Below are positions 22,383 to 47,138 of a stretch of 64,000 nt of DNA, in pieces; position 1 is the first letter of the stretch; each line of letters begins with the position of its first letter. The position numbers and the translations under genes are program-made. The notes beneath the pieces were generated by a model that saw only the letters and a program-made list of their open reading frames with translations, searched no databases and had not been told where the DNA came from. Origin of the DNA: Bacteroidota bacterium (lineage in GTDB: Bacteria; Bacteroidota; Bacteroidia; Bacteroidales; FEN-979). The DNA is taken from contig JBAXLI010000015.1 in assembly GCA_037134895.1 (NCBI GenBank), forward strand, positions 2,875-66,874, given 5' to 3'.

Positions 22383-23732
22383 TTACAGTGTAATAATAAA
22401 GCTTGTGCTTTCGGCGGATGACTCAAGGTGTATATATCCGTGGTGCAGCCTGAGGATCTGGCGTGAAAGGCTCAAACCAATGCCCGAACCATTGTCTTTC
22501 GTGGTAAAGAAGGGGATGAAAATCTTTTCCTGCACATCTTCAGGGATAAAAGGTCCGTTATTGCTGATCCTGATCACCGGACGGTTCTGACGGGAGAGGT
22601 CAACCCATACTTTGATCTTCCTGTTTTCAGATATGTCTTCCAGGGCCTCCATTGCATTGTTCAGTATATTAATGACAACCTGGGTGAGGAGTTTTTTGTC
22701 ACCGGGAATATTCGTGATCCTCGATTCAATTTTCAATTCATGCTGAATATTCAGTTTTTCCATCCTTTCCTTTGAAAGCAGCCAGATCTGGTCAAGCCAT
22801 TCTTTCACCGGGAAGGGGGCAAACTCAGGCTTCGGGATCCTCGTAAGTTTGCGGTAACTGTCGACGAAATTGACCAGCCCTTTGCCCCGTTCTTCAATGG
22901 TATCAAGGCCCTGGATTACGTTCTCGATGGTTTCTTCATCGACTGTTGAGGGATTGACAGGGTTTCCTTCCTCGAGAAAAAATCTTCTGAGAGTCCCGGT
23001 AAGCGAAACTATAGGCGCTATGCTGTTCATGATTTCATGGGTAAGCACTCTGATCAGTTTCTGCCAGGAATCGAGCTCTTTCTCATCCAGCTCATGCCTT
23101 ATGTCCTGCAGGGATATGAGTTTAGACACTTTCCCGCCGTAATGAATCTCCTTTGAACGGATTAGCAGGTTGATCTGGGAATCCTTGCTGAACTGCTTGA
23201 ACGAAGAGGCCTCACCGGGTTTGATTGCTGCAAGCAAGGTGAAAAGTTCCGGATTTCTCATTGGGATCAGGTGAAGCGGAGTGAAAGAAGGGATACCGGC
23301 ATAATCAAAAGCCTTGTCATTCATGATCTCCACTTCATTATCCTGGTTGATGGCCATCAACCCGGTTGCTGCATGCTGGATAAACGTCCTGAAATATTTC
23401 TCAAGGTATTCATTCTGCAGCTTGATCTGGTTGATCTGTTCGTTCAGCTCGGTAAGGCTTTTATAGAGATGACGCAGGGATTTCTGGCGGATCTGGGTGG
23501 GAAATTTCAGGGATGAATCTTCGTTGCGTATCGCTTCGAAAAAGAAGGCGATCTGACGGTTCGACTGGTTGAAAGTGTAAATTATGGAATAGGCTGACAC
23601 AGGCACAGGAAGCAAAAACATCAGGTACCAGGAATCCATATGATAAGCTGTTAAAAATCCTGCCAGGAATACTGCAATCAATATGACTGCAATATGTATC
23701 ATTGCCCTTAGGGTGACATGTTTATAGCCCAT
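22383..23732 (-). CDS. Sensor histidine kinase with two adjacent TM helices and no periplasmic domain (NtrB/AtoS-like cytoplasmic part)
   Basis: TM1 is AMIHIAVILIAVFLAGFLTAY, the loop is HMDSW and TM2 is YLMFLLPVPVSAYSIIYTF. A PAS-like region follows. The H-box is LIRVLTHEIMNSIAPI, and the HATPase boxes are NILNNAMEAL, NNGPFI and GSGIGLSLSRQI. It overlaps the regulator gene by 11 nt. Confidence 0.85.
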   Translation of the reverse strand: MGYKHVTLRAMIHIAVILIAVFLAGFLTAYHMDSWYLMFLLPVPVSAYSIIYTFNQSNRQIAFFFEAIRNEDSSLKFPTQIRQKSLRHLYKSLTELNEQINQIKLQNEYLEKYFRTFIQHAATGLMAINQDNEVEIMNDKAFDYAGIPSFTPLHLIPMRNPELFTLLAAIKPGEASSFKQFSKDSQINLLIRSKEIHYGGKVSKLISLQDIRHELDEKELDSWQKLIRVLTHEIMNSIAPIVSLTGTLRRFFLEEGNPVNPSTVDEETIENVIQGLDTIEERGKGLVNFVDSYRKLTRIPKPEFAPFPVKEWLDQIWLLSKERMEKLNIQHELKIESRITNIPGDKKLLTQVVINILNNAMEALEDISENRKIKVWVDLSRQNRPVIRISNNGPFIPEDVQEKIFIPFFTTKDNGSGIGLSLSRQILRLHHGYIHLESSAESTSFIITL

Positions 23733-25095: not shown

Positions 25096-25298
25096 AATCT
25101 GAAAAGTTTATACCCCCAGGCGGCATTCTCCTCCAACTGAACTAAGTACGATGGAAGGTTTTGGCGCAAAGAGAGTGTAATATATCTCGTAAAAAGTTTT
25201 TAAATGTACAGAAAATTAACACCAAACTGTTCAGTATGTTTACAAAAAATCACATGAAACATATTATAAATAGTTATAAATCAATCATATAAAATTTT

Positions 25299-25314
25299 TG
25301 GCATAAATTTTGCA
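25299..25314 (+). promoter_or_regulatory. Sigma54 (-24/-12) promoter: TGGCAT-AAATT-TTGCA
   Basis: The sequence tTGGCATaaattTTGCAa matches the TGGCAC-N5-TTGCW consensus with exact GG/GC spacing. It lies 32 nt upstream of the ABC ATPase ATG (25346), next to a divergent sigma54 activator gene. Confidence 0.65.
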
Positions 25315-25345: not shown

Positions 25346-26038
25346 ATGATAAAAACAGTAAATCTAACCAAACGGTTTATCACCGACGAGATCGAAACCA
25401 CTGCACTCAACAATGTGAGCATGGAGGTTAAAAAAGGCGAATTCATTGCCATTATGGGTCCTTCGGGTTGCGGCAAATCAACTTTGCTTAACATCCTTGG
25501 AATGCTTGATAATCCAAGTGACGGCAATTACATCTTCAACGATGTTGATGTTTCAAAATACAAGGAAGGGAAGCGAACCCAATACCGCAAGGGAAACATT
25601 CAATTCGTGTTTCAGAGCTTTAATCTCATCGACGAACTGAACGTTTATGAAAACGTCGAGCTTCCCCTGCTGTATCTGAAGAAAACAACAGCCGAGCGCA
25701 AACAGATGGTAACCGATATCCTTGACCGGATGAAAATCGGTCATCGCAAAAAGCATTTTCCGCAGCAACTGTCGGGTGGACAGCAGCAGCGTGTTGCAAT
25801 TGCCCGTGCAGTGGTACCTGGCCCTCAGTTGATCCTTGCCGATGAACCAACCGGTAATCTCGACTCGAAAAACGGTATAGAGGTAATGAATCTCTTATCT
25901 GAACTGAATAAGCAGGGAACCACCATTGTGATGGTGACCCATTCGCAAAGGGATGCAGCATTTGCTCACAGAATTGTCAATTTGTTTGACGGACAGATCG
26001 TAAGTGAGGAAGTCGCCCATAGCCAGCAAGCCGTATAA
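25346..26038 (+). CDS. ABC transporter ATP-binding protein (MacB/LolD-type NBD)
   Basis: Walker A is GPSGCGKST, the signature is LSGGQQQRVAIARA, Walker B is LILADEPTGNLD and the H-loop is VTHS. 230 aa. Confidence 0.95.
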   Translation: MIKTVNLTKRFITDEIETTALNNVSMEVKKGEFIAIMGPSGCGKSTLLNILGMLDNPSDGNYIFNDVDVSKYKEGKRTQYRKGNIQFVFQSFNLIDELNVYENVELPLLYLKKTTAERKQMVTDILDRMKIGHRKKHFPQQLSGGQQQRVAIARAVVPGPQLILADEPTGNLDSKNGIEVMNLLSELNKQGTTIVMVTHSQRDAAFAHRIVNLFDGQIVSEEVAHSQQAV

Positions 26039-26039
26039 A

Positions 26040-27389
26040 ATGAAATGCCAAACGAACATACTGCTCCTGTTTTTGCTTGCATTCTCCTGCCAGGGAATTT
26101 TATTTGCCCAGAAGTCCTGGAACCTCGATCAATGCATAAACTATGCCTGGGAAAACAATTTCTCTGTTCACAACCAGGAGCTGGGTGTTAAAATCAAGAA
26201 GACCGATTACAGGCAGGCCAGGAATGATTTATTGCCCGACCTCGGTTTTTCAACTTCATACACCCAGAACTATGGACGCAGTATCGATCCGACTACAAAT
26301 TCATACATCGATGTACAGTTCTTTAACAATGGTTATGGGCTGGCGGCTTCAGTTGACCTCTTCAACGGGTTTATGAAGGTCAATACGATCAATATGCAGC
26401 GCTTGAATTATGAAGCGGAGAAGAACAGGCTTCAGCAAGTCAGGAACGAGGTTGCATTTACAGTGATTAACAGTTATTTCAACGTTTTGCTTCAGCAGGG
26501 GCTTTCGTCAATTGCAATGGAGAATTTCAAACTCTCACGCACCCAATTGGATTTTACTACTGAATACGTCAGGCTTGGTCGTAAACCGGGTACCGATTTG
26601 CTCGAAACAGAAGCCAACCTGGCCTCCGACAGTTTCCTGCTGGTTCAGTCTTATAACCTGCTTGAACAGGCAAGCCTGGGGCTGAAATACCAGATGAATT
26701 TTCCGGTTGCCGACAGCCTTGTCATTGATACTGTTGTGATGTCAATCTTCGCAGGTTCAATCGATACGCTTTCGATGGACGAGTTATACAGGGTTGCAGC
26801 TGTTGCACTGCCTGATATAGTATATGCAAAGAATAACATGCTGGCTGCAAAAAAAGCGGTACAGGTAAGCCAGGGCTCATTTTCACCCAGGCTTGGATTT
26901 TATGCCGGATGGAATTCGCAGTATATGCAAACAAGCCGAGACTCCCTGAACAGGATCATTCCTTATGGCGACCAGATGAAAAACAACTCAAGCGAATACC
27001 TGAGTCTTGATCTCCAGATACCATTGTTTTCGAGATTTTCTAAATACACTTCCCTGAGTAAATCCAAACTGAGATACCAGCAAGCCAGGATACAGTATGA
27101 TGACATCTCATATAAACTCATGATGGGCGTCGAAAAATCGCTTACCGAATGGAGAGCTTCAAGGGCGGAATATGAATCTTCACTCAGCCAGCTTGCAAAG
27201 AACCTTAAAGCATATCAGGCTGCTGAAAAGAAACTGGATAAAGGCCTGATCAATATCATAGAATTCGATATCCAGAAAAATAAATGGATCAGGGCAAAAG
27301 CCGAAGTTTTAAGAACCGGCTTGCAGGTATTGTTAAAGGAACGATATATCAGGTTCCTGATGACCGGATCACTGTTATCGGGGAAATAA
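26040..27389 (+). CDS. TolC-family outer-membrane efflux protein
   Basis: The start is at ATG 26040 (MKCQTNILLLFLLAFSCQGILFAQ), 1 nt after the ATPase stop. It has a two-fold repeated coiled-coil/beta architecture with typical OEP motifs (LDQCINYAWENNFSV, ARNDLLPDL, LDKGLINIIEF). Confidence 0.85.
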   Translation: MKCQTNILLLFLLAFSCQGILFAQKSWNLDQCINYAWENNFSVHNQELGVKIKKTDYRQARNDLLPDLGFSTSYTQNYGRSIDPTTNSYIDVQFFNNGYGLAASVDLFNGFMKVNTINMQRLNYEAEKNRLQQVRNEVAFTVINSYFNVLLQQGLSSIAMENFKLSRTQLDFTTEYVRLGRKPGTDLLETEANLASDSFLLVQSYNLLEQASLGLKYQMNFPVADSLVIDTVVMSIFAGSIDTLSMDELYRVAAVALPDIVYAKNNMLAAKKAVQVSQGSFSPRLGFYAGWNSQYMQTSRDSLNRIIPYGDQMKNNSSEYLSLDLQIPLFSRFSKYTSLSKSKLRYQQARIQYDDISYKLMMGVEKSLTEWRASRAEYESSLSQLAKNLKAYQAAEKKLDKGLINIIEFDIQKNKWIRAKAEVLRTGLQVLLKERYIRFLMTGSLLSGK

Positions 27390-27440: not shown

Positions 27441-28715
27441 ATGGTAGCTAATGACACAACCGGGATGGATAAGGTAATCGTGGAAAAACGGTGGATTAAA
27501 AAAAAATACTGGAAATACATCATTGGCGGAGGTTTGCTCCTGGCGGTCGTTCTCTTTTTTCTTTTAAGGGATTGGACCAGCACGGTAAGGGTTGAAAGGG
27601 AGAGAATCAGTATTGCTCCTGTGATCAAGGGGATTTTTAATGATTATATCACCAATGACGGGATAGCCGCTCCCATCTCCACCGTATACCTGGATGCTTA
27701 CGAGGGCGGAAAAGTAGAAGAGATCCTGCTCGAAGAAGGAACCATGCTGAAAAAGGGAGACGTTATTATCCGGCTGATGAATAACGATATCAACCTGAAC
27801 ATCCTTAATAGCGAAGCCCAGCTGGCCGAGAAATCGAATTTCCTTAGGGAAGTCAGGATACGCATGGAACAGGAAAAACATTCCCTCGAAAGGGAAGTGC
27901 TTAATGCCCGTTTTGACCTTATTGCCAAAAAAAGGACCTATGAACAGAATAAAGAGCTTTATAAAGACCAGCTGATTTCCCGGGATGAATACCTTCGTTC
28001 GGAAGAAGCCTATCAGCTGGCCGATAAAACAAAAGAGCTGGTTTATCTCAGGCAAAGGCAGGATTCTTCCTTCCGGTCCCTTCAGATTGAGCAGATCAGC
28101 GACAACCTGAAGAACATGCAGCTGAACCTGGCTCTTGTAAAACAACAGCAGGATTACCTGAATGTAAAATCCCCGGTCGATGGACAGCTTGGCAGCCTTA
28201 TGGTAGAAATCGGGCAGTCGATCCCTCGTGGTTTCCGAATCGGGCAGATCAACATCCTCACTTCCTATAAAATTGAGGCGGATGTGGATGAACATTATAT
28301 CGACAGGATAAGAACAGGACTAAGCGCCTATATTGAAAGACCGAATGACACCCTGCCTCTTGAAATTAAAAAAGTGTATCCCGAAGTCCGGAACGGCAGG
28401 TTTAAAATAGACCTTGTGTTTACAGGAAAACTTCCTGAGAACATCAGGATAGGACAGTCCTATTTTATTAAGATCAAGCTCGGACAGGCTGTCGAAGCTA
28501 TACAGATTCCCCAGGGCGGATTTTATCAGACTACCGGTGGACAATGGATTTTTGTTGTTGATAAAAGTGGTCTGTTCGCTGTTAAAAGGAACATCAAGAT
28601 CGGAAGAAAAAATCCGCAGTATTATGAAATTCTCGACGGGCTTGCTCCCGGAGAAGAGGTCATTGTTTCGGATTACACGATTTTCGGAAACAATGATAAG
28701 GTTGAATTAAAGTAA
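27441..28715 (+). CDS. HlyD-family periplasmic adaptor (membrane fusion protein)
   Basis: N-terminal TM anchor (YIIGGGLLLAVVLFFLL), a lipoyl-like segment (GGKVEEILLEEGTMLKKGDVIIRL), a long coiled-coil hairpin and a beta-barrel C-terminus (SPVDGQLGSLMVEIGQSI). Confidence 0.85.
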   Translation: MVANDTTGMDKVIVEKRWIKKKYWKYIIGGGLLLAVVLFFLLRDWTSTVRVERERISIAPVIKGIFNDYITNDGIAAPISTVYLDAYEGGKVEEILLEEGTMLKKGDVIIRLMNNDINLNILNSEAQLAEKSNFLREVRIRMEQEKHSLEREVLNARFDLIAKKRTYEQNKELYKDQLISRDEYLRSEEAYQLADKTKELVYLRQRQDSSFRSLQIEQISDNLKNMQLNLALVKQQQDYLNVKSPVDGQLGSLMVEIGQSIPRGFRIGQINILTSYKIEADVDEHYIDRIRTGLSAYIERPNDTLPLEIKKVYPEVRNGRFKIDLVFTGKLPENIRIGQSYFIKIKLGQAVEAIQIPQGGFYQTTGGQWIFVVDKSGLFAVKRNIKIGRKNPQYYEILDGLAPGEEVIVSDYTIFGNNDKVELK

Positions 28716-28726
28716 ATCATGAAAAC

Positions 28727-31120
28727 ATGTTAAAGAACACCTTTAAAATAATATTCCGCAATATTTCCAGGCAGAAGGGCTTCACCTTTATAAATGTAGC
28801 CGGACTTGCAGTTGGCCTTGCAGCAGCTTTGCTGATCCTGATGTGGGTCATGGATGAATTGAGTTATGAAAACTTTAATGAGCATGCCGGTAATATCTAT
28901 ATGGTTCACCAGGACCAGTTCTATACAGGGGATCGTTATCGTGTACCTGTGACACCTCATCCCTGTGCCCCGGTCTGGAAGGAACGGATTCCTGGGATAA
29001 GGGAAACAACGCGGCTTGTCAGGCTTCCCAAGCTCCTGTTTCGCGTTGACGACAAGGTGTTCTTTGAAGACCACATCAAGGCAGCCGACCCGGGAATCTT
29101 AAAGATTTTTACATTTCCGTTGTTGTTAGGGGACGCAAACACGGCCTTGCTTGATCCACACTCAATAATTCTTACGGAAAAATTGGCAAGGAAATATTTT
29201 GGAGATAAAAATCCGGTCGGAAAGAACATAAGTCTCGAAAACAAGAATACATTTACGGTCAGCGCTGTGATGAAAGACATCCCGAAAAACTCTGTCTATT
29301 CTACCGCTGTTGAAAACGGAATTGGTATTGATGCGATTATTCCATACTCCTTTCTGAAGGAGATTGGAGTGTCAGATGACTCATGGGGCAATAACAGTAT
29401 TTTTACTTATGTATTACTTGATAATGGGGCCGATATAAAATCCGTTAATAAGAAACTAACCGACATTGTTGTTGAACATAGACCTGAGACCAGGACAAAA
29501 TTCTTCCTCTCACCATTATTGGATTTACGCCTTCACACTTCGTTCGGATTCCAGGTTGGCAAAGGGGCTATCGTTAACATTTACATATTTGTTTCCATTG
29601 CCATATTTATTCTTCTCATCGCCTGTATTAATTTTATAAATCTTGCCACTGCTAAAGCATCCTTAAGAGGGAAAGAGATAGGCATTAAAAAGGTTTCAGG
29701 GGCCAACCGGCTGAACATGATTGTCCAGTTCATGGTTGAATCACTGGTGATCGTAATGATTTCTTTATTTTTTGCACTGGTGCTGGTCGGCTTGTCTCTC
29801 GCGGTTTTTAATTCGATATCAGGGAAAAGCTTTACACTAACCGATATTTTCCAGGTAAAATTCATGGTAGGATTTATCATAACAGGCCTGGTAACCGGAA
29901 TCCTTGCCGGGATTTATCCTGCATTTTATTTATCCTCTCTGAAACCGGTCCTGGTGCTTAAAGGAGAAACGATATCCGGAAAAAGAAACAGCCTGTTAAG
30001 ACGAATCCTGGTAATCGTCCAGTTCTCTCTTTCGATATTTATTGCACTTGGTTCTATTTTCATGTACCTGCAATTAAAATTCATGCAAGGAAAGGAACTG
30101 GGATTTGATAAGGAAAACGTCATATGCATCAACATGCCCGACAACATGAAAACCAAATACTATTCACTGAAGAAAGAGTTGCTTCGGGAGTCTTCTGTAC
30201 TTGGTGTTACAGCTTCATCGCATAATCCTACAATGATCGGCAGTAATGGTGGTGGTGCATCATGGGCAGGAAAGGATCCGAAAAAGGAAGTACTGATAGG
30301 GCAGAACATCATCGATTACGATTACTTAAGTACCATGAAGATCAAACTGGTGTCGGGACGGGATTTTTCGCGCGATTTTCCCGGTGACATGGGTGATACC
30401 TTGGGTAATTTCCTGGTAAATGAAGAAGTCGCAAAACTGATGGGAGGAGGGGATGCGGTTGGTAAAAGTTTCAGGTTTATGGGACAGAAGGGAATTATTG
30501 TCGGGGTGATGAAAGATTTTCATTTCAGTGGAGCCCAGGAACCGATTCAACCCATGGCTTTTGCGGTTAGCGACAGCAAATCCTTTTCCAATGCGCTGAT
30601 AAGGTTGGCGCCGGGCAATCTCCCCGGCACCCTGGAGACCGTGGAGAAAATCTGGAAAAAAATTGTTCCTGATTATCCGCTCGAGTACAGTTTTCTTGAT
30701 AAAGATTATGAAAATCTTTACAGGACAGAGATGCGGATGAGCCTCTTGTTAAAGTATTTCACAATAGTTGCGTTAATTATTGCATGTCTCGGGCTCTACG
30801 GATTAAGTGCATATGCAGCCGGCAGGCGTACCCGCGAGATAGGTGTGCGTAAAGTGATGGGAGCAGGAGTGGTCTCGGTGATTTTCTCCCTGTCTAAGGA
30901 ATTTCTCCTGCTTGTGATCATTTCGATTGCACTGGCGTTTCCGCTTGGCTGGTATGCCGTAAATAAGATGCTGAATGAATTTGCATACCGCATAGACATA
31001 AACTGGCTGGTGTTTGGTGAGATCGGACTGGGTGCATTGATCGTTGCCCTGGCGACGGTAAGTTTCCAGGCATACAGGGCTGCTGCAATTAACCCGGCGG
31101 TGGCTTTGAAAACGGAATAA
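28727..31120 (+). CDS. MacB-like ABC permease, double FtsX/MacB_PCD architecture (paralog 1, 797 aa)
   Basis: The N-terminus is MLKNTFKIIFRNISRQKGFTFINVAGLAVGLAAALLILMWVMDELSYENF. There are two FtsX cytoplasmic-loop motifs, LRGKEIGIKKVSGANR and RRTREIGVRKVMGAG, each preceded by a large soluble (periplasmic) region. The C-terminus is INPAVALKTE. Confidence 0.9.
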   Translation: MLKNTFKIIFRNISRQKGFTFINVAGLAVGLAAALLILMWVMDELSYENFNEHAGNIYMVHQDQFYTGDRYRVPVTPHPCAPVWKERIPGIRETTRLVRLPKLLFRVDDKVFFEDHIKAADPGILKIFTFPLLLGDANTALLDPHSIILTEKLARKYFGDKNPVGKNISLENKNTFTVSAVMKDIPKNSVYSTAVENGIGIDAIIPYSFLKEIGVSDDSWGNNSIFTYVLLDNGADIKSVNKKLTDIVVEHRPETRTKFFLSPLLDLRLHTSFGFQVGKGAIVNIYIFVSIAIFILLIACINFINLATAKASLRGKEIGIKKVSGANRLNMIVQFMVESLVIVMISLFFALVLVGLSLAVFNSISGKSFTLTDIFQVKFMVGFIITGLVTGILAGIYPAFYLSSLKPVLVLKGETISGKRNSLLRRILVIVQFSLSIFIALGSIFMYLQLKFMQGKELGFDKENVICINMPDNMKTKYYSLKKELLRESSVLGVTASSHNPTMIGSNGGGASWAGKDPKKEVLIGQNIIDYDYLSTMKIKLVSGRDFSRDFPGDMGDTLGNFLVNEEVAKLMGGGDAVGKSFRFMGQKGIIVGVMKDFHFSGAQEPIQPMAFAVSDSKSFSNALIRLAPGNLPGTLETVEKIWKKIVPDYPLEYSFLDKDYENLYRTEMRMSLLLKYFTIVALIIACLGLYGLSAYAAGRRTREIGVRKVMGAGVVSVIFSLSKEFLLLVIISIALAFPLGWYAVNKMLNEFAYRIDINWLVFGEIGLGALIVALATVSFQAYRAAAINPAVALKTE

Positions 31121-31147
31121 CATCCGCCCACAAAACAAACGGAAATC

Positions 31148-33568
31148 ATGATAAAGAGTTATTTTAAAACCGCAGTGAGAAATTATTCCCGGAACAGGGG
31201 ATTCACTCTGATCAATATTGGAGGGTTATCTGTTGGCATGACATCTGCTTTAATACTCATTCTGTTTGTTGTAAACGAGCTTAGTTTCGACCGCTTTCAT
31301 AATAAAGCAGACCGTATCTACAGGGTTGAAGAGCAGCATGGCCCCGACCCCGCTAACCGTGGATTTTTCACCTCTCCTCCTCTTGCTCCGGCTTTGAAAT
31401 CGATGTTCCCTGAGATCCTTGATGTTACAAGAATCATGCTTTGGAAAAGGAATGTTCTTGTAAGCTACAAGGATAAAAAGTTTGTTGAATCAAATATTGC
31501 CCGGGCCGATTCTTCACTGTTTGATGTTTTTACTATTCCTTTTCTCGAGGGAAATCCGAAAGAGGCGTTAAGAAGGCCCAATACTGTTGTCATCACCGAT
31601 AAAATAGCGAAAAAATTCTTTGGAGATGAAGACCCCCTCGGGAAATCGATCAATATTAATTCAAAAACAGCTTACGAAATTACCGGAGTTGTGCACGAAT
31701 TACCCCAGAATTCTCATTTTTTCTTCGATTTTCTTATACCCGCGAATTACGAAGGGTTGAACTGGGGTGATGGATGTTTGCAGACTTACCTCACACTACC
31801 TGAAAATTATGATAAAGCACAGCTTGAACAAAAGTTCCCTGATTTTATTTTACGATATATGAGTCCCTGGCTGGAAAAGGAATATGGGCTTCCTGTTACC
31901 AGGATTTTTAAAGACAAAAACAACCAGATCAACTATTTCCTGGCTCCCCTTCGCAATGTCTATCTGCATCATAATATGGAAGGCCTCCCTGGTCTGGATG
32001 GCCTGATGATGAAATTCGGAAGTTTAAAAACGGTGATTCTTTTCTCGATCCTGGCTGTGTTTGTCCTGCTTATTGCCTGCATTAATTTTATCAATTTATC
32101 AATTGGAAGGTCGGTTAAACGAACATCGGAAATTTCGCTTCGGAAAGTAATGGGGGCAAGAAAGAGTTCCCTGATCAGGCAATTCCTTATTGAATCGGTA
32201 ATGATCAGTTCTGCCGCCTTGATACTGGCTTTTATCATTTTGAGAATTTCGATCCCGTTTTTCAATAATTATCTAAATACCTCCATCGGCTTTTCTAACA
32301 TTTCTTTGTTGTTTCCCGTTTTTGTGATTATCACCTTCCTGGTTGGAATCCTTTCGGGCTTGTACCCTGCATTCTACCTGTCGTCAATCAATCCCGCCGA
32401 AATCCTGGGTAAAAAGTCAGGACCCCCTTTGCTGAGGACCTGCCTCAATCATCTCCTGCTTACAGTCCAATTCATTATTTCCATCGGGTTGATTATTTCC
32501 ACTGCCACGATTTTTTTACAATTGAATTTCGTGAACAAAGTAAAACTCGGGTTCACGAAAGATCATGTCATGTTGATTGAAAGAGCCGGTGCATTGGGCG
32601 AAAACCAGCATTCATTTACTGAATCATTAAAAAGAAATCCGGGTGTACTGGAAACATCCTATTCTAACTCAGTTCCCGGGCGCCATTTTGAACCGACTGG
32701 TTACAACCTCGAAGGAGCCCCGAGATCAGAGTCATTTTTTTTAATGACCATGAATGCCGACCAGGATTTTCTTAAAACCCTCGACCTGAAACTTGTTAGA
32801 GGGAGGTACTTTTCCAAAGGAACAGCATCCGGGAATCTTGAAGCGGTAATCAATGAGAAAGCAGTGGAAAGATACCGGTGGAAGGAGCCTCTTGGGAAAA
32901 GGATAATCTATGAAACAAAGGAAAACGGGGAAAATGTCTATGCAGAAATCATCGGTGTGGTCAGGGATTTTAATTTTGAACCATTATACCAGGTCATCCA
33001 GCCAATGATGATCTGCAACCTGCCTTATCCTGGGAACCTGCTTGTCGTAAAACTCAGACCTGAGAATTTGAATAACACAATTGTTTATATACAAAATCAA
33101 TGGAGCCGAATGACGAATGCACAACCTTTCCAATACTGTTTTCTGGATGACGATTTCGGGAAATCCTATAAGCCTGATCAGAGAAGGGGAATCCTGTTTC
33201 TTCTTTTTTCCATTTTGGCAATATTTCTTTCATGTATGGGTATGCTGGGTCTCGTAATCTCATCAACAGAGCAAAGAACAAAAGAAATAGGTATCAGGAA
33301 AGTCAATGGTGCCACAAGCATGATTCTGCTGACTCTTTTTTCAAAAAATTATTTACGATGGATTGGCATTGCCTTTCTGGTGGCCTGCCCGGTTTCATAT
33401 TATGCAATGTACAGGTATCTTGAAAATTTTGCATTCAGGATAAACCTTAGCTTGTGGATTTTTGTTTTTGCCGGCCTTTTTACCATGCTGATCACCATTT
33501 TAACCATTACCTGGCAGAACTGGCTGATGGCTTCCAAAAATCCGGTGGAAATGCTCAGATATGAATAA
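31148..33568 (+). CDS. MacB-like ABC permease, double FtsX (paralog 2, 806 aa)
   Basis: The N-terminus is MIKSYFKTAVRNYSRNRGFTLINIGGLSVG...ELSFDRF. The motifs are KRTSEISLRKVMGARK and QRTKEIGIRKVNGAT. The C-terminus is KNPVEMLRYE. Confidence 0.9.
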   Translation: MIKSYFKTAVRNYSRNRGFTLINIGGLSVGMTSALILILFVVNELSFDRFHNKADRIYRVEEQHGPDPANRGFFTSPPLAPALKSMFPEILDVTRIMLWKRNVLVSYKDKKFVESNIARADSSLFDVFTIPFLEGNPKEALRRPNTVVITDKIAKKFFGDEDPLGKSININSKTAYEITGVVHELPQNSHFFFDFLIPANYEGLNWGDGCLQTYLTLPENYDKAQLEQKFPDFILRYMSPWLEKEYGLPVTRIFKDKNNQINYFLAPLRNVYLHHNMEGLPGLDGLMMKFGSLKTVILFSILAVFVLLIACINFINLSIGRSVKRTSEISLRKVMGARKSSLIRQFLIESVMISSAALILAFIILRISIPFFNNYLNTSIGFSNISLLFPVFVIITFLVGILSGLYPAFYLSSINPAEILGKKSGPPLLRTCLNHLLLTVQFIISIGLIISTATIFLQLNFVNKVKLGFTKDHVMLIERAGALGENQHSFTESLKRNPGVLETSYSNSVPGRHFEPTGYNLEGAPRSESFFLMTMNADQDFLKTLDLKLVRGRYFSKGTASGNLEAVINEKAVERYRWKEPLGKRIIYETKENGENVYAEIIGVVRDFNFEPLYQVIQPMMICNLPYPGNLLVVKLRPENLNNTIVYIQNQWSRMTNAQPFQYCFLDDDFGKSYKPDQRRGILFLLFSILAIFLSCMGMLGLVISSTEQRTKEIGIRKVNGATSMILLTLFSKNYLRWIGIAFLVACPVSYYAMYRYLENFAFRINLSLWIFVFAGLFTMLITILTITWQNWLMASKNPVEMLRYE

Positions 33569-33577
33569 AAACATCAT

Positions 33578-35971
33578 ATGATAAGAATTGCTTTCACAAC
33601 ACTTTCCCGGACGATCAGGAAAAACGTTGTTTTCTCGTTTATCAACATTTTTGGACTAACCTTGGGAATTGTCAGTTTTTTACTGATGATGATGTTTGTT
33701 TTCAGTGAACTAAGTTATGACCGGTTTAACCAGAACTCAGACCGGGTATACCGCCTGTGTATCAGGGCCGGGATAGGGGATACAAAGATCAACCAGACGT
33801 ATTCCTCGTCCAGAATTTTCAGGGAAATGCTGGCAAAATTTCCCGAGATTGAAACCGGTGTAAAATTTTCAGGTTGGCAGGATGTCCTGGTCAGAGTGGG
33901 AGAAAAAACGATCTCTGAACCGACAGTAATGTTCGTGGACTCAACTATATTTAAAGTTTTTACTTTGCCGTTGATTTCGGGTAATCCATCATCTGCGCTC
34001 GGTCGCCCAAATACTTTGGTGATCAGCGAATCCACTGCAAAAAAATATTTCGGTGAACAAAACCCGGTAGGTAAGATCATGGAGGTTGATACTGGTGGTT
34101 TCGGGCGGTTTGAAGTGACCGGCATATTTAAGGACATCCCGTCAAACGCTCATTTCCATTTCGGATTGATGGCTTCACTGGTTACATTCCCTCAAGGGCT
34201 AAGGGAGCAGGAATGGTCTGCAAACAACTTCGTCACCTATTTTCTTCTTAAACCCGGAAGTTCTGCAAAGGAGTTAGAAAATAAATTCAAAAAATATACC
34301 ATTGAAACGTATGGTGAAGAAAATTATAAAAAGCAGGTAGCCAAAGGAAACTTTTGGGAATTTTATCTTCAGCCCCTGACTTCCATCCACCTGCACTCCG
34401 ACATCAACGGGGAATTTGAACCAAACGGAAATATTAATTATGTCTATATTTTTATTGTAATCGCTTTCTTTGTCCTAATCATCGCCTGCATCAATTTCAT
34501 GAACCTTTCCACGGCAAAATCGATGCTGAGGGCCCGTGAGGTCGGGATCAAAAAGACCGCTGGATCGACCCGGGGTATATTGATAGGACAGTTCCTGTCG
34601 GAATCGGTGATATTCACATTCGTTTCGCTGATCCTTGCGATCATCATTATATATACTTTGCTTCCTGCCTACAATTCATGGCTGGGAAGGGAATTGTCGT
34701 TCAACATATTATCAACCCCCTTGACAATACCGGGCCTGGTAGCTTTTGGATTGGTAGTTGGAATGGCAGCAGGCATTTATCCCGCATTTGTACTCTCATC
34801 TTTCAACCCGGTTAAAGTCCTGAAAGCCCAGGCAATTTCTGAAACCAAAGGGATCGGATTCAGGAACATACTTGTCATCGTACAGTTCTCCGCGTCTATT
34901 TTTCTGATCATAGGGACTTTGGTTATAAGCAGGCAGATGGATTTCATCATGAAAAAAGATGTTGGTTTCACCAGGGAAAATATAATCATCCTTCGCACCC
35001 CACCTGCTTTTAGCAGGGTCAGTAAAGCGTTCAGCGATGTAATCAGGCAGCGTACGGGTGTTACCGCAGTTTCAGCATCGAATACAATACCGGGTTTTGG
35101 TTTTTCAAACTGGGGTTTTGGCGCAGAAGGGGTTGAAAAATGGTTTACCCTGAACCAGATCATCTGCGACACGGGGTTTTACCGGACGATGGGGTTCCAT
35201 ATGGCCGAAGGACGTTTCTTCTCCCGGGAGTTTCCCACTGATTCCTCAGGCATCATTTTAAACGAAACAGCAGTCAGGGTTTTAGGATTAAAACATCCAT
35301 TAGGAACTAAGATGTTTGCCGGCCGAACACCCCGGCGCAACTATCATGTGATTGGTGTTGTAAAAGATTTCAACTACGAATCGGTTCATTCCGAGATACG
35401 CCCGATGGGACTGGTTAACCTGAACTCACTAACAGGCAGTTATTTAAGCATACGGTTTGATCCGGGAAAATCAAAGGAGATCCTGCCACTGGTAAAAAGC
35501 ACCTGGGAGAAGCTGCTGCCTGCCACACCGTTCTCCTATAGCTTCATACAGGATGATTACGTGAATCTTTACCACAATGAAATTCAGACGAAGCAGGTAT
35601 TTACCATGCTGGCCGGTCTGGCTGTCATCGTTGCCATCCTCGGTATCCTGGGACTGGCTTCTTTCATGGCCCAGCGAAAGACCCGTGAGATCGCCATCCG
35701 TAAAGTTTCGGGTGCAGGTATCGGCACGATCATCATGCTACTCAACTGGAAATTCGTTAAATGGGTGTTGTTTTCCTTTCTCCTGGCAAGCCCTGTTGCA
35801 TGGTGGGTGATGAACCGCTGGCTGCAGGATTTTGCATACAGGGTATCCCTCAGCGCCTGGATCTTTTTACTGGCAGGTGCAATTGCCCTGTTACTGGTTA
35901 TCATCACGGTGAGCCTGGTCACTTTAAAAGCCGCATCGGTCAACCCTGCCGAAAGTATGAAATATGAATAA
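33578..35971 (+). CDS. MacB-like ABC permease, double FtsX (paralog 3, 797 aa)
   Basis: The N-terminus is ...FSFINIFGLTLGIVSFLLMMMFVFSELSYDRF. The motifs are LRAREVGIKKTAGSTR and RKTREIAIRKVSGAG. The C-terminus is VNPAESMKYE. Confidence 0.9.
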   Translation: MIRIAFTTLSRTIRKNVVFSFINIFGLTLGIVSFLLMMMFVFSELSYDRFNQNSDRVYRLCIRAGIGDTKINQTYSSSRIFREMLAKFPEIETGVKFSGWQDVLVRVGEKTISEPTVMFVDSTIFKVFTLPLISGNPSSALGRPNTLVISESTAKKYFGEQNPVGKIMEVDTGGFGRFEVTGIFKDIPSNAHFHFGLMASLVTFPQGLREQEWSANNFVTYFLLKPGSSAKELENKFKKYTIETYGEENYKKQVAKGNFWEFYLQPLTSIHLHSDINGEFEPNGNINYVYIFIVIAFFVLIIACINFMNLSTAKSMLRAREVGIKKTAGSTRGILIGQFLSESVIFTFVSLILAIIIIYTLLPAYNSWLGRELSFNILSTPLTIPGLVAFGLVVGMAAGIYPAFVLSSFNPVKVLKAQAISETKGIGFRNILVIVQFSASIFLIIGTLVISRQMDFIMKKDVGFTRENIIILRTPPAFSRVSKAFSDVIRQRTGVTAVSASNTIPGFGFSNWGFGAEGVEKWFTLNQIICDTGFYRTMGFHMAEGRFFSREFPTDSSGIILNETAVRVLGLKHPLGTKMFAGRTPRRNYHVIGVVKDFNYESVHSEIRPMGLVNLNSLTGSYLSIRFDPGKSKEILPLVKSTWEKLLPATPFSYSFIQDDYVNLYHNEIQTKQVFTMLAGLAVIVAILGILGLASFMAQRKTREIAIRKVSGAGIGTIIMLLNWKFVKWVLFSFLLASPVAWWVMNRWLQDFAYRVSLSAWIFLLAGAIALLLVIITVSLVTLKAASVNPAESMKYE

Positions 35972-36036
35972 AAGGTCTGATGGTTTGAAATAACTAATGT
36001 GTACGTAAGATCCGGACTAATCCAACAAACTGTATT

Positions 36037-38385
36037 ATGATAAAGAGTTATTTTAAAACAGCAATTGCCCATCTTTTCAGGAATAAAACCTATTCTTTGA
36101 TAAGCATTCTGAGCTTGACCATCGGATTGGCGGTTTGCATCCTGCTTTTATTGTACATCAGGATTGAACTAAGCTTCGACAGGTTCAATAAAAATGCAGA
36201 CAATATTTACAGGTTGTGCAATCCCGAACATCCTTGCCATTCACCCCAGACCGCGAAATTCCTGGCCGATAATATCCCTGAAATAAAAGGATATACAAGG
36301 ATCTTACCCCGGGTAAATGAAATTGTCGCATACAAGGATAAGAGGTTCAAGGAAAACCGGGTTGCTTTTAGCGATGCAGCTTTCTTCAGTATCTTCTCTT
36401 TTAAATTCAGACAGGGAAATCCGGAAAACGCTTTAAATCTGCCTTTCACCATCGTAATTTCTGAAAAGACCGCACATAAATATTTTGGAAACGAAGACCC
36501 GATAGGTAAGGTGCTGAAACTGAATAATGAATCCAATTATACCATAACGGGCGTAATGGACGACATGCCAGGGAATTCACATTTCTGTTACGACATGATC
36601 CTGACTCTTGCAGGCACCGATAAAGAAGAAGGAATGGACAACTGGGGATGGCAGAACTTCCTGATCTATTTTCTGTTTCCTGACCACTTCTCCAAAACTG
36701 TAGTGGAAGCAAAATGCAACAGCTTAATGAAAACCGTTAAAGACCCGAATAATCTTCCTTCTCAATATTCCCTGCAACCACTGAATGACATACACCTCTA
36801 TTCCTCTCATTTCAAGACTGACATCCAACCCCAGAACAGCATTTTATACGTCCTGATTTTTTCAGCAATTGCTTTCCTGGTCCTGCTCATTTCCTGCTTC
36901 AATTATATCAACCTGTTTACTGCCAGTACCACCACAAGAGTTGTGGAGATCGGCATGAGGAAAGCTTGCGGCGCATCACGCAAACAGCTCGCAGCACAAT
37001 ATATTTTCGAATCTTTTTTAATGGTTGTTGTCTCGTTTATTCTGTCACTTCTTGTTGTAGTTCTTAGTTTGCCTGTATTCAATGAGCTGTCGGGTAAAGA
37101 CCTCTCAATCCTCGCACTGATCGACGCTAAAACAATCTGGGGTATTTTCGGGATCCTGCTGCTCGTAGGGATTCTCGCAGGATGGTATCCCGCTTTTGTG
37201 CTTTCATCGTATAATCCCGTCAGGGTGTTTCAATCGTCCAAAACCACCAGGGAGCAGAAATTTCAATTCAGGAAGATCCTGGTAGGCGCCCAATTTACGA
37301 TCGTCATTGTCCTGATAACCATTTCAATTGTCATGTTCCGGCAGATAAGGTTCCTCCAATACGGAAACCTGGGATTCGACAAGGAATATGTCCTGGTATC
37401 CGAAGTCGGGAGCTTTGGGAATGAAGGAAAATACCTGACCCTGAAACGGGCGCTTCTTGACCAGGCTTCAGTGCTCAGCGTTTCGGCAGCCAGCCGTGTT
37501 CCTTCGGAAGGCCTGAACAATATCGGTGCGGTCAAACTCCAAGGACAAAAAACCGCTTCAAAGATTCCCTATGTCCATGTTCATTTCGATTATTTTAACA
37601 CATTGAACATTAAAGCTATAAAAGGACGATTATTCTCAAATGCATATAAAACAGATACCAGCCAGGCTCTGATTCTGAATGAAGCTGCGGTGAAAAGCCT
37701 GGGAATACAGGGAGATCCAATCGGGCAGTCGGTAAAATGCAACTGGCCAAGGTCTGAAAGGAAGATTATAGGAATTGTTGGCGATTTTCACTTCGAATCT
37801 CTGTATGAAAAGATCAAGCCCGCTGTTTTTGTGATAGATTTCAATGAATGCTGGGAGCTTATGGTCAAAGTGCAGCGGTCCAATATACCAAGCTCCATCA
37901 GTAAAATAAATGAGATCTGTAAGACCGTTTACCCCGACCATGTATTTGATTTTCATTTGTTGGACAAGCAACTTGAGCAGCTCTATCAATCCGATGAAAA
38001 GAGATTTCACCTGATGGGATATTTTACAGTGCTGGCAATTGTTCTTGCCTGTATGGGACTATTTGCGATGGCTTCTTTTATCATCACAAGCCGTACGAAG
38101 GAAATCGGGATACGAAAAGTCAACGGTGCAACTGTTCCTCAAATAATGCAGATGCTGAATTTAAGTTTTATTAAATGGATAGGCATCGCATTTGTAATTG
38201 CAAGTCCGGTTGCCTGGTATGTCATGTCCAGATGGCTCGGAGGCTTTGCCTACCGGACCAGCCTTTCGTGGTGGATTTTTGCAGTGACTGGGGTCATCAG
38301 CTATATTATAACAATGATTACCATCGGAATCCAGTCATACATGGCTGCAACGGTAAACCCGGTGAAAACACTTAAAACGGAATAA
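36037..38385 (+). CDS. MacB-like ABC permease, double FtsX (paralog 4, 782 aa)
   Basis: The N-terminus is MIKSYFKTAIAHLFRNKTYSLISILSLTIG...ELSFDRF. The motifs are TTRVVEIGMRKACGASR and SRTKEIGIRKVNGAT. The C-terminus is VNPVKTLKTE. Confidence 0.9.
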   Translation: MIKSYFKTAIAHLFRNKTYSLISILSLTIGLAVCILLLLYIRIELSFDRFNKNADNIYRLCNPEHPCHSPQTAKFLADNIPEIKGYTRILPRVNEIVAYKDKRFKENRVAFSDAAFFSIFSFKFRQGNPENALNLPFTIVISEKTAHKYFGNEDPIGKVLKLNNESNYTITGVMDDMPGNSHFCYDMILTLAGTDKEEGMDNWGWQNFLIYFLFPDHFSKTVVEAKCNSLMKTVKDPNNLPSQYSLQPLNDIHLYSSHFKTDIQPQNSILYVLIFSAIAFLVLLISCFNYINLFTASTTTRVVEIGMRKACGASRKQLAAQYIFESFLMVVVSFILSLLVVVLSLPVFNELSGKDLSILALIDAKTIWGIFGILLLVGILAGWYPAFVLSSYNPVRVFQSSKTTREQKFQFRKILVGAQFTIVIVLITISIVMFRQIRFLQYGNLGFDKEYVLVSEVGSFGNEGKYLTLKRALLDQASVLSVSAASRVPSEGLNNIGAVKLQGQKTASKIPYVHVHFDYFNTLNIKAIKGRLFSNAYKTDTSQALILNEAAVKSLGIQGDPIGQSVKCNWPRSERKIIGIVGDFHFESLYEKIKPAVFVIDFNECWELMVKVQRSNIPSSISKINEICKTVYPDHVFDFHLLDKQLEQLYQSDEKRFHLMGYFTVLAIVLACMGLFAMASFIITSRTKEIGIRKVNGATVPQIMQMLNLSFIKWIGIAFVIASPVAWYVMSRWLGGFAYRTSLSWWIFAVTGVISYIITMITIGIQSYMAATVNPVKTLKTE

Positions 38386-38419
38386 CGTTTTCCAAATTCA
38401 ATACAGGAAGTAAACCAAT

Positions 38420-40774
38420 ATGAATGATTTAAAATTTGTCCTGAGGATTTTAAGACGCAACCCGTTCATGCTTATTACAAACGTGACAGGGCTTGCAGTG
38501 GCATTGACCACTGTGATCTTCACTCTCACATACATTCGCTATGAGCTGAGTTATGACAGGCATTTTAAAACCAGTGACAGGGTTGTAAGACTGTACAGCC
38601 GGGTTACCGATAATACGAGAACCGAAGTATATGGCATCACCTTGCGCACAGCTTATACACAGCTTCCCGGGAGAGTTCCCGAAATTGAGTCAGCCGTTCA
38701 GTTGTATGGATTTAATCAGACTTCAGTTCAAACAAAAGAAAACAAAATTCAAAAAATCAGGATGTTCTATGCTGATCCTGAATTTTTTAAAGTATTCGGA
38801 CTTTCACTGAAAGCCGGCGATGATAAAACCGCATTGCTTGGAAGTAAAAGTGCGGTGATCTCGACTTCTGTTGCAGAAAAACTGTTCCACACGACCAACT
38901 GCATTGGAAAGGAAATTGAATCGGACGGTGAACATGTGCTGATTACAGGGATAATGGATGAAATTCCGAAAAACTCTCATCTGAGTGTCGATCTGTTGAT
39001 TTCCCTGTCAACCCTTAATATGAAATGGCTTGGGTCCTCTCTTGAATTTCAAACATACTATTTGCTAAAACCGAATATTGATTCAAAGGCTGCAGGCGCT
39101 AAGATTGCCAGTGCATATAATTCACTTATGCAGGACTGGGCCAGGACCTTTTACGCAAAGGTGCAATCGGGGGTTGAGCCACTGACCGATCTGTACCTTC
39201 ATTCTGTCGCAAAGGACTATATCCCGACCCATGGGAGCACGAAACAAATGCTGATCGTGGGATTGATCGCCTTGTTTGTCCTTCTCACGGCATTGCTCAG
39301 CTATATTAACCTGTTTATCATCCAGGGCGAAAAACGCATTACCGAAATATCAACCCGCACCATGTTCGGAGCCACAAAGGCAAGCATCGCCAAACTGTTT
39401 TTTCTGGAAACACTCATTGTCTTTCTTTTTTCAGCCATATTAGCATTTATGGTCATCTTTAAATCGATGCCATTCCTTTCGACTTTGTTGCAGTCGAAAG
39501 TTGATCTTTCGGATTTGTTTTCTGCAGGAGGTATTATTTCCTGCGCTATTTTGCTGGCAGTGCTTCTGGTGATTACATCCGGTTATCCAGTCCTTTATCT
39601 CTCCAGGATGAAATACGCACTGGGATTGAGGGGAAAAATCTCAAGTACAGGAAATAATAACTGGCTTTCTGCAGCCTCGGTATTGGTGCAGTTTACAGTA
39701 GCCTCGTTTTTTATCAGCTGTGTCGTAATTATATTGTCGCAACTGGCATATATGCACGAAATACCGATGGGATTCGACAAGAATAATGTCATCACTGTCA
39801 GCAATTGCAGCATGCCTGTATCCAGGAAGTATGAAAGCATTAAAACGGAATTGTTGAAACTGCCTTTCATTACTGCTGTTTGCGGAGGGGAGCATTTTAT
39901 GGGCGGCGGTTGCAGCGGACAGAGCATTAGAACCATGGCTGAGGGGGAAAGCAGCGACAAAGCCATCAATGAATACCGTGAAAAACCCGGTTTTGGAGAA
40001 CTCATGCAGTTTAAGCTGGTCGATGGGAGGTTTTTTCGCCAATCAATGGCCGACAGCCAGGCTGTTGTTTTAAACGAATCGGCAATCAGGTACCTGGGAA
40101 TAAAACCAAAAGCCGGACAAACAATCCTTTATAAGGATGAACCGGTTGAACTAATTGGTATAGTAAAGGATTTTTATTATATGAGCAATCCAGGCGAACC
40201 AATTGCTCCCCTTGTTATCGCGAATTGTTTCTGGGGAACTCCGAACATTTACATCCGCAGTAATAATAAATTGACAGGAAGTCAGCTGATGCAGATCAAA
40301 TCGGTTTTCCATCGCTTTGATGAGAATTTTATTTTCAACTATAATTTACTGGCGGATATCTTTGACGGGATGTACAGAAAAGAAAACCGGCTTGCTGAAT
40401 TGGTTTCCCTTGGCGGAGCTGAAGTGGTTTTCATCAGCCTGATCAGTTTACTGGCCCTGACCGTTCTGAAAATTTCGCGCCGTACCAGGGAAATCGGGAT
40501 CCGAAAAGTGAACGGGAGTTCAGTAAGCCGGATAATCGCTGTTTTGTTCAAGGATATCCTGGTCATTGTGGTCGTCGCAATTATCATTGCTTCAGCAGGC
40601 TCTTATATTGTCATGAGCCGATGGCTTTCAGATTATGTCCAACGTATCCTGCTGCACCCGGGATATTTTTTAGTTAGCGCTTTGTTTGTATTGGCGATAG
40701 CCGTTATTGCCACAACATGGCAGGCCTGGAAAGCAGCTACACAAAACCCGGTAGAAGCATTAAAGCATGAATGA
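38420..40774 (+). CDS. MacB-like ABC permease, double FtsX (paralog 5, 784 aa; most divergent first FtsX loop)
   Basis: The N-terminus is ...NPFMLITNVTGLAVALTTVIFTLTYIRYELSYDRHF. The first loop, GEKRITEISTRTMFGATK, is degenerate. The second is RRTREIGIRKVNGSS. The C-terminus is QNPVEALKHE. Confidence 0.85.
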   Translation: MNDLKFVLRILRRNPFMLITNVTGLAVALTTVIFTLTYIRYELSYDRHFKTSDRVVRLYSRVTDNTRTEVYGITLRTAYTQLPGRVPEIESAVQLYGFNQTSVQTKENKIQKIRMFYADPEFFKVFGLSLKAGDDKTALLGSKSAVISTSVAEKLFHTTNCIGKEIESDGEHVLITGIMDEIPKNSHLSVDLLISLSTLNMKWLGSSLEFQTYYLLKPNIDSKAAGAKIASAYNSLMQDWARTFYAKVQSGVEPLTDLYLHSVAKDYIPTHGSTKQMLIVGLIALFVLLTALLSYINLFIIQGEKRITEISTRTMFGATKASIAKLFFLETLIVFLFSAILAFMVIFKSMPFLSTLLQSKVDLSDLFSAGGIISCAILLAVLLVITSGYPVLYLSRMKYALGLRGKISSTGNNNWLSAASVLVQFTVASFFISCVVIILSQLAYMHEIPMGFDKNNVITVSNCSMPVSRKYESIKTELLKLPFITAVCGGEHFMGGGCSGQSIRTMAEGESSDKAINEYREKPGFGELMQFKLVDGRFFRQSMADSQAVVLNESAIRYLGIKPKAGQTILYKDEPVELIGIVKDFYYMSNPGEPIAPLVIANCFWGTPNIYIRSNNKLTGSQLMQIKSVFHRFDENFIFNYNLLADIFDGMYRKENRLAELVSLGGAEVVFISLISLLALTVLKISRRTREIGIRKVNGSSVSRIIAVLFKDILVIVVVAIIIASAGSYIVMSRWLSDYVQRILLHPGYFLVSALFVLAIAVIATTWQAWKAATQNPVEALKHE

Positions 40775-40787
40775 ATAATACTTTATT

Positions 40788-42344: not shown

Positions 42345-42354
42345 TTATTGACCC

Positions 42355-44751: not shown

Positions 44752-44777
44752 ATCAGAACCTCTAACAATCTGAAATT

Positions 44778-47093: not shown

Positions 47094-47138
47094 GATAATA
47101 ACATTAAAAACTGAAGGCTGAACATTCGGTTTCAAACT

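Follow-up and report, generated by a model that had tools for sequence, protein, structure and literature searches.

A hairpin-anchored histidine kinase and its sigma-54 activator beside MacB-type pump arrays of Bacteroidota

The subject of this report is a histidine kinase gene and its neighbors in a 64,000-nucleotide stretch of DNA from a Bacteroidota bacterium (order Bacteroidales; contig JBAXLI010000015.1, positions 2,875 to 66,874), referred to throughout as the window. The gene encodes a membrane-anchored histidine kinase in which a two-helix hairpin with a five-residue join is the only membrane part. It is translationally coupled to the gene for an NtrC-type activator of sigma-54 promoters, and the pair is transcribed away from an operon for a tripartite, MacB-type ATP-binding cassette (ABC) pump with an array of eight permeases. 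Kinase, activator and pump genes keep company in relatives across the phylum. The pair appears to be a two-component module of the sigma-54 class, conserved but uncharacterised, that is dedicated to MacB-type pump arrays; the topology of its kinase makes sensing coupled to the transporter a reasonable hypothesis.

Arrays of FtsX/MacB-type permeases rank with the largest sets of paralogous genes in Bacteroidota that still lack an explanation, and the kinase-activator pair appears to be a dedicated array regulator in about a quarter of the sampled genomes of the phylum. The literature searched contained no description of this family of kinases, of its topology or of how it senses.

The membrane hairpin and its conservation

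Residues 1-60 of the kinase open reading frame (22383-23732) correspond to 23553-23732 on the minus strand and read MGYKHVTLRAMIHIAVILIAVFLAGFLTAYHMDSWYLMFLLPVPVSAYSIIYTFNQSNRQ. The topology was derived from Kyte-Doolittle hydropathy, the positive-inside rule and an AlphaFold2 (AF2) model. The first transmembrane (TM) helix, TM1 (residues ~10-30), is strongly hydrophobic, with a peak of 2.9 in a 15-residue window; TM2 (residues ~36-54) is weaker and proline-kinked, with a peak of 1.95. Beyond these two, a scan of the whole protein gave no segment above the 19-residue hydropathy threshold. The AF2 model (132-sequence alignment; mean predicted local distance difference test score, pLDDT, 89.5) has a helix at residues 3-29, coil at 30-34, and a second helix at 35-40 and 42-69. 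Lysine and arginine residues lie before TM1 (K4, R9) and after TM2 (R59, R69, K76, R82, K84, R87), with none in the loop, and the family means of lysine plus arginine are 1.68 before TM1, 0.65 in the loop and 2.77 after TM2. This charge bias fits the orientation to be expected of the hairpin, with the N-terminus inside, the loop outside and the C-terminus inside. The start codon is supported by alignment of M1 across relatives and by the absence of an N-terminal extension.

The original prediction, drawn from the sequence before any database search, had placed next to the ABC operon a kinase with two TM helices, about five residues between them and no extracytoplasmic loop domain. Hydropathy, the AF2 model and the family alignment all agree with it, the hairpin sequence that it quoted (with the loop HMDSW) is correct, and neither hydropathy, charge bias nor AF2 predicts the substantial periplasmic domain for which it had proposed a topology check.

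The same arrangement extends through the family. A word-indexed search returned at least 8000 candidates, the best 120 of which are nearly all 449-451 amino acids long, and of 1.84 billion cluster representatives searched exhaustively, 1819 matched at E < 1e-30, nearly all of the best 150 falling at 445-465 amino acids. The hairpin aligns essentially gap-free across 106 relatives of 45-100% identity. Among 144 full-length representatives of ~30-70% identity, F64, the first residue of the cytoplasmic part to be conserved, is found at positions 62-68 in 136, so that a periplasmic domain has no room in the family; the two best 18-residue hydrophobic windows are separated by 0-13 residues. Just 2 of the 144 seem to have lost part of the anchor, which suggests selection for a permanent place in the membrane. 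In this kinase family the hairpin is a shared trait and not a matter of chance. In sequence, however, the helices themselves vary widely and the loop most of all (entropy 3.5 over the 144 representatives), although the TM2 kink at P42 and P44 is conserved among the closer relatives.

Pairs of this kind form a large family, with members in Bacteroidota and also in metagenome-assembled genomes (MAGs) labelled Ignavibacteriales, Melioribacter and Salinibacter. Of 301 genomes sampled evenly from the phylum, 75, from 48 of 144 genera, contain a member of the kinase family (E < 1e-40), with at most five copies per genome; the highest number, five, occurs in genome G135. Natural fusions of the kinase to pump parts were not encountered among the relatives. 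The sole long relative, a metagenome protein of 678 amino acids (P0151), has an internal PAS-DHp duplication (hairpin-PAS-DHp-PAS-DHp-catalytic domain) with the hairpin still first; it may be real or an assembly artefact.

Cytoplasmic domains of the kinase

The membrane hairpin continues into a helix-connector-helix segment with a 14-residue connector (residues 70-83) in the AF2 model. It is termed HAMP-like here from this AF2 geometry only, there being no significant match of the kinase to Pfam HAMP. The segment begins, directly after TM2, with the family signature N-R-x-I-x-F-F-F-E-A-I-R-N-E-D, in which F64 and D72 are nearly invariant.

From residue 112 on, the family profile aligns to ThkA (PDB 3a0r), a kinase of PAS-DHp-catalytic domain (CA) architecture, with E 1.5e-41, and Foldseek matches of the model are to the PAS-DHp-CA kinases WalK, VicK, YF1 and ThkA. 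The H-box H232-E233-x-x-N236-x-x-x-P240 is invariant in the family alignment; Pfam HisKA stays below threshold for the kinase, while HATPase_c matches with E 2.8e-19. The order of PAS, HisKA-like DHp and HATPase domains that had been read from the sequence downstream of the hairpin is thus confirmed by the 3a0r match, Foldseek, the HATPase_c match and the invariant H-box.

Linkage to MacB-type pump genes

The proteins of the window were placed on 92 related loci, 12 derived from genomes and 80 from metagenomes. Where at least 6 kb was available upstream of the regulator, a MacB-type ATPase or an FtsX permease lies beside the pair in 37 of 38 loci. Counting pump parts on either side of the pair, these 38 loci contain a permease in 36, an ATPase in 33, an adaptor in 25 and an outer-membrane factor in 12. 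In a further set of loci, taken from nine families within the 301-genome sample, kinase and regulator are divergent from adaptor, ATPase and permeases in 20 of 20. Combined, ABC genes stand beside the pair in 57 of 58 loci with enough flanking sequence. The linkage to MacB/FtsX genes also occurs in MAGs labelled Cyclobacteriaceae, Ignavibacteriales, Melioribacter and Salinibacter. One locus (L003:8638-14055) holds two complete modules of pump, regulator and kinase arranged tail to tail, such that two family kinases converge.

Sigma-54 activator, candidate operator and promoter

The stop codon of the activator gene overlaps the kinase start by 11 nucleotides, and an NtrC-type activator adjoins the kinase in 71 of 75 loci. 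In the divergent intergenic region, the repeats at 25205-25244 are kept in the corresponding regions of five orthologous loci (L001-L005; 71-91% protein identity), the flanks of which diverge. These repeats are probably the binding sites of the activator, as predicted from their conservation.

Downstream of the repeats, on the ABC strand, lies a -24/-12 promoter of the sigma-54 type, which at 25299-25313 is the sole match to TGGYAY-N5-TTGC in the 64-kb window and which has counterparts at the same position in orthologues of the window's intergenic region. Across 47 related loci, TGGYAY-N5-TTG[CA] occurs in the divergent intergenic region on the ABC strand in 16 and on the opposite strand in 1, against 0.3% of shuffled sequences; the strict form TGGCAC-N5-TTGC matches in 10 of the 47. 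In orthologues of 71-73% identity the -12 element is TTGA and the upstream repeats are retained. The intergenic regions of L003, L004 and L005 (~8459-8638), for instance, carry TGGCAC at -24 with TTGA replacing TTGC at -12, and TGGC, TAGC and GTGC occur at -12 in other relatives. Because orthologues carry TTGA or other -12 variants, strict -24/-12 scans miss most promoters of the module.

An in silico survey from 2025 independently found sigma-54 promoters to be enriched 5' of FtsX-type permeases in Bacteroidia and described the link as previously unrecognised (PMC12316311). It can be inferred with good confidence that the kinase-activator pair turns on transcription of the pump operon from its sigma-54 promoter. 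The sigma-54 activator and tripartite pump that had been noted beside the kinase from the sequence alone are substantiated by their Pfam domains, by this promoter and by the linkage across related loci.

Comparison with known systems

A kinase that lacks a periplasmic domain and reads an ABC transporter is exemplified in Firmicutes by BceS-BceAB (PMC11009047, PMC4513084). BceS-type kinases have two TM helices, a short linker and no extracytoplasmic domain, and are encoded with an ABC transporter whose permease, BceB, has 10 TM helices and, between TM7 and TM8, a single large extracytoplasmic domain (PMC11009047); signalling by BceS needs the transporter and its ATP hydrolysis (PMC4513084). The window system shares with these modules a kinase of two TM helices and short linker without an extracytoplasmic domain, an adjacent FtsX-fold (type VII) transporter in which the permease is one polypeptide with two FtsX modules, and a transporter operon as the probable regulatory target.

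The differences are considerable. A BceS-like kinase, in the definition attributed to Mascher (2006), is reportedly small and has, apart from a HAMP-like linker, no input domain in the cytoplasm, whereas the window kinase has 449 residues and a PAS domain (124-210). BceR is an OmpR-type regulator, whereas that of the window is an NtrC-type sigma-54 activator (receiver or REC, Sigma54_activat and HTH_8 domains). The window permeases are MacB-like, with 8 TM helices and two periplasmic domains rather than the 10 and one of BceB; the pump is a tripartite one that includes an adaptor and an outer-membrane duct; one kinase is encoded for eight permeases; and the host, according to the source labels of close relatives, is a diderm member of the Bacteroidota. 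Sequence relationship is also remote. BceS (8g3a_D) matches positions 315-450 of the family profile only (E 6.6e-10) and ranks far below PAS-type kinases, and homology of the window kinase to BceS as such was rejected because the catalytic domain alone matches. The likening to BceS-type kinases in the original prediction therefore holds for the intramembrane type of topology and for the layout of the locus; it fails for the PAS domain, the NtrC-type regulator and the 8-TM permeases, and homology is confined to the catalytic domain.

By domain order the closest known kinase is PhoR, with a membrane region lacking a significant periplasmic domain followed by PAS, DHp and CA domains. In the PhoR-PstSCAB-PhoU system, such a kinase of diderm bacteria reads an ABC transporter through its PAS domain (PMC4423584, PMC9239213). 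The PnpS and PhoR models align weakly over the whole window kinase, with scores far below their cutoffs (49.7 against 334.2 bits for phoR_proteo, 84.9 against 400 for PnpS). PhoU and Pst genes were not found among the neighboring open reading frames of the window that were scanned, and the partner differs in being an exporter, not an importer, with a sigma-54 activator in place of PhoB. The argument of the original prediction that a kinase unable to bind periplasmic ligands senses through its transporter is not supported as it stands; it passes over sensing by PAS and the precedent of PhoR-PstSCAB-PhoU (PMC4423584, PMC9239213).

In the type of H-box (HEIxN) and in the REC-AAA+-HTH_8 partner, the pair resembles AtoS-AtoC, ZraS-ZraR and NtrB-NtrC. 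AtoS/AtoC and ZraS/ZraR are among its best named NCBIfam matches, and the structure of the ZraS cytoplasmic domain is among the best PDB matches of the kinase by both sequence and fold. AtoS and ZraS carry sensor domains in the periplasm and NtrB is a soluble protein; the window family, in contrast, has a bare hairpin, and its target is a MacB-type pump operon. As an equivalog of AtoS, PnpS, PhoR, ZraS, NtrB or PrsK the kinase was rejected, its scores lying far below all of the NCBIfam cutoffs. The window system belongs among sigma-54 two-component systems by its regulator (REC and AAA+ domains with a Fis-type helix-turn-helix), its adjoining H-box kinase and its -24/-12 target promoter.

On the side of the transporter, MacAB-TolC and the darobactin exporter DarBCD share with the window the MacB_PCD+FtsX permease fold, an HlyD-type adaptor and a TolC-like duct, and the 777-position DarB model suggests a long permease of similar size. 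The ATPase, in contrast to its fusion in E. coli MacB, is a separate protein of 230 amino acids; eight paralogous permeases accompany the one ATPase; and scores to DarB, DarC and DarD are below cutoff. Peptide biosynthesis genes were not found in the 64-kb window.

For the combination as a whole, which had been put forward as uncharacterised, the literature searched yielded neither a described Bacteroidota example nor a Gram-negative Bce-like system. One apparent hit (PMC13749626) was rejected, as the "BCEs" of that paper are B-cell epitopes.

A paralogous module at a modified-peptide operon

Contig C35 of the same genome carries a second kinase-regulator pair, 35% (kinase) and 50% (regulator) identical to that of the window, at the 3' end of a sigma-54-driven operon for a ribosomally synthesized and post-translationally modified peptide (RiPP; locus L033:4244-13688). 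The operon runs from the promoter through the precursor, a radical-SAM maturase, a pseudo-radical-SAM partner and a C39-peptidase ABC exporter to an orphan ATPase. The maturase passes the GG_samocin_CFB cutoff (380 against 300 bits), and the orphan ATPase, of MacB type, is 66% identical to the ATPase of the window. Since the best matches of the window pump are Dar-like and the C35 pair adjoins a RiPP operon, sequence comparison suggests that the kinase family may control the export of, or protection from, modified peptides.

Source of the signal

From these features a sequence of events can be proposed. The phosphorylated activator would bind the conserved repeats at 25205-25244 and open the sigma-54 promoter at 25299-25313, and an operon of roughly 24 kb would be switched on to supply the ATPase, a TolC-like duct, the adaptor and eight alternative fused-dimer permeases. 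The kinase would take its signal from the pump complex, which as co-sensor would report its load or activity. Contact might be made by the hairpin with permease helices, as in Bce modules, or by the HAMP-like/PAS region with the shared ATPase, as in PhoR. Peptides would be the likely substrates, because the nearest named ABC relatives are subunits of the darobactin exporter and the C35 pair sits at a RiPP cluster.

That kinase signalling depends on the transporter, with the pump as co-sensor, is judged to fall a little short of an even chance. MacB-type pumps act on substrates that are periplasmic or in the outer leaflet (PMC5985334), and the kinase family is without a periplasmic domain yet keeps its anchor, which makes the pump a likely source of the signal; the permease is, in addition, the most constant neighbor of the pair (36 of 38 loci), and BceS and PhoR provide precedents, in Firmicutes and in diderms, for kinases of this shape that read an ABC transporter. 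Several observations weigh on the other side. The PAS domain of the kinase could suffice as sensor. The hairpin is the fastest-diverging part, with 49 of 60 residues (82%) identical against 92% in a close orthologue and 30 of 60 (50%) against 74% in a more distant one, and it does not track the first permease, for L005 keeps an orthologue of that permease (Perm1) and has the most diverged hairpin, while L001 has a different first permease and a near-identical hairpin. One kinase for eight permeases of 26-33% identity is unlike the 1:1 co-evolved complex of Bce type. Taken together, hairpin divergence and the 1:8 ratio argue weakly against a specific interface between hairpin and permease, and with such a ratio any coupling would be expected at the ATPase that all permeases share or at a permease surface that is conserved. 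Distance-matrix correlations over 30 loci are 0.93 for kinase and NtrC-type regulator, 0.69 for kinase and adaptor, and 0.42 for kinase and ATPase; all are significant by permutation, but the correlation is strong only for the cognate regulator and does not separate contact from co-inheritance. On contig C35 no match to an FtsX permease was found, though an ATPase is nearby. Finally, the only exception to the linkage described above is a family member without ABC genes within 10 kb (L105, 8644-11347). Its neighbors are genes for FtsH, a biotin ligase (BirA), a diacylglycerol-kinase-like protein, a DnaJ-domain protein and a universal stress protein, and this locus may represent a sub-branch with a different regulon.

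The hairpin might instead serve as anchor only, as in ArcB and FixL-type kinases, where an autonomous cytoplasmic sensor does the work. The PAS domain, perhaps with the HAMP-like segment, would then bind a cytoplasmic or membrane-derived small molecule or read metabolic or redox state, and the pump operon would be merely the target. This is judged nearly as likely as sensing through the pump. A well-folded PAS domain does lie between membrane and DHp domain, conservation is low in the hairpin and loop, which change more quickly than the cytoplasmic part, and the kinase groups by sequence with the PAS-bearing AtoS/NtrB/PhoR-like kinases (AtoS being its best NCBIfam match, at 119 bits); the 1:8 ratio of kinase to permeases is easily accommodated if the pump is output only. 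The conserved PAS residues, however, look structural (G124, N138, L189, L205, I211), and no pocket residues are conserved across the family. Nor would an autonomous PAS sensor account for an anchor that is essentially never lost, soluble PAS sensors such as NtrB needing none, or meet directly the periplasmic or outer-leaflet substrates of MacB-type pumps (PMC5985334). Direct sensing within the membrane is unlikely. The hairpin itself would then respond to an altered bilayer, or to a hydrophobic or amphipathic substrate (peptide, detergent-like compound or lipid) that partitions into the membrane, and would signal through the HAMP-like segment without the pump. Such sensing would agree with the retention of two helices and a minimal loop throughout the family, with the TM2 kink (P42, P44) of closer relatives and with the strongly conserved juxtamembrane motif right after TM2; in the wider family there are nonetheless no conserved polar or aromatic positions within the helices, and the near-obligate linkage to FtsX-type permeases would go unexplained, except as output.

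Carried through to its broadest form, the reading of the pump as co-sensor would describe a transporter-coupled ("need-based" or flux) circuit at work in the diderm Bacteroidota and in lineages related to them. A hairpin-anchored PAS kinase in or beside a MacB-type pump would read the activity of the shared ATPase, or of the engaged one among many interchangeable permeases, and feed back on the array through the sigma-54 activator, as an independently evolved counterpart of Bce that probably serves the export of, or immunity to, peptide antibiotics or RiPPs. This fuller picture is offered tentatively, at rather less than an even chance. If the kinase does take its signal from the pump, sensing coupled to a transporter would gain a new case outside Bce and PhoR-Pst, one joining a different kinase class, a sigma-54 class of regulator and a tripartite pump. 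Compounds that induce the sigma-54 promoter would be candidate substrates of the pump. Should the kinase prove an ordinary PAS sensor, the pair would still be a conserved, uncharacterised module with a recognisable promoter and operator, open to study in culturable Bacteroidota.

The pump operon and coordinates of the module

The operon downstream of the sigma-54 promoter has the parts of a MacB-type (type VII) tripartite pump, namely MacB_PCD+FtsX permeases, a MacB/LolD-type ATPase, an adaptor and an outer-membrane factor (Table 1). Within 25346-49475, eight permease genes of the fused-dimer type share a single ATPase gene; the eight were recovered as tblastn matches and are mutually 26-33% identical. 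In the first permease there are eight hydrophobic segments and two periplasmic domains; its best PDB matches are to MacB, not BceB. In NCBIfam, the ATPase, adaptor and permease match best to DarD, DarC and DarB, respectively, the proteins of the darobactin exporter, all below cutoff (for the ATPase and DarD, 270 bits against 375).

Table 1. Features of the kinase-activator-pump module in the window and of the paralogous module on contig C35 (locus L033)
Feature	Position	Strand	Basis
Histidine kinase gene (P0001), 449 aa	22383..23732	-	Open reading frame and translation; HATPase_c E 2.8e-19; AF2 pLDDT 89.5
TM1, residues ~10-30	23643..23705	-	Hydropathy peak 2.9; AF2 helix 3-29
Outward loop HMDSW, residues 31-35	23628..23642	-	AF2 coil 30-34; no K or R; entropy 3.5
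TM2, residues ~36-54, kinked at P42/P44	23571..23627	-	Hydropathy peak 1.95; AF2 helix 35-40 and 42-69
HAMP-like helix-connector-helix, residues 55-120	23373..23570	-	AF2 helix to 69, coil 70-83, helix 84-120
Cytoplasmic PAS domain, residues 124-210	23103..23363	-	ThkA profile match; AF2 beta-sheet core; Foldseek
DHp domain, residues 212-297, phospho-acceptor His232 (nt 23037-23039)	22842..23099	-	AF2 helices 212-252, 266-297
Catalytic ATP-binding domain, residues 305-449	22386..22820	-	Pfam HATPase_c 344-449; N359, G417, G419 invariant
NtrC-type sigma-54 enhancer-binding response regulator, 457 aa	23722..25095	-	Response_reg, Sigma54_activat E 3.8e-63, HTH_8
Candidate activator sites TGTACAG-N15-CTGTTCA-N3-TGTTTACA	25205..25244	+	Kept in orthologous intergenic regions
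Sigma-54 -24/-12 promoter TGGCATAAATTTTGC	25299..25313	+	32 nt 5' of ATPase ATG; divergent from kinase-activator pair
MacB/LolD-type ABC ATPase, 230 aa, only one of the operon	25346..26038	+	ABC_tran E 1.7e-35
TolC-like outer-membrane factor	26004..27389	+	Pfam OEP E 5.2e-39
HlyD/MacA-like periplasmic adaptor	27441..28715	+	HlyD_3, HlyD_D23; RND_mfp 119.7 bits, over cutoff 94.9
Eight permeases, ~780-806 aa, each with duplicated MacB_PCD+FtsX module	28727..49475	+	Pfam, two stretches each
DUF4933 open reading frame, 518 aa, weak match, inside permease array	40788..42344	+	
C35 sigma-54 promoter TGGTACGATCTTTGC	L033:4244-4258		
C35 precursor open reading frame, 69 aa, double-glycine leader, Cys-rich core	L033:4306-4515		

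One more permease gene of the fused-dimer type seen in the window is present on a further contig, C168.

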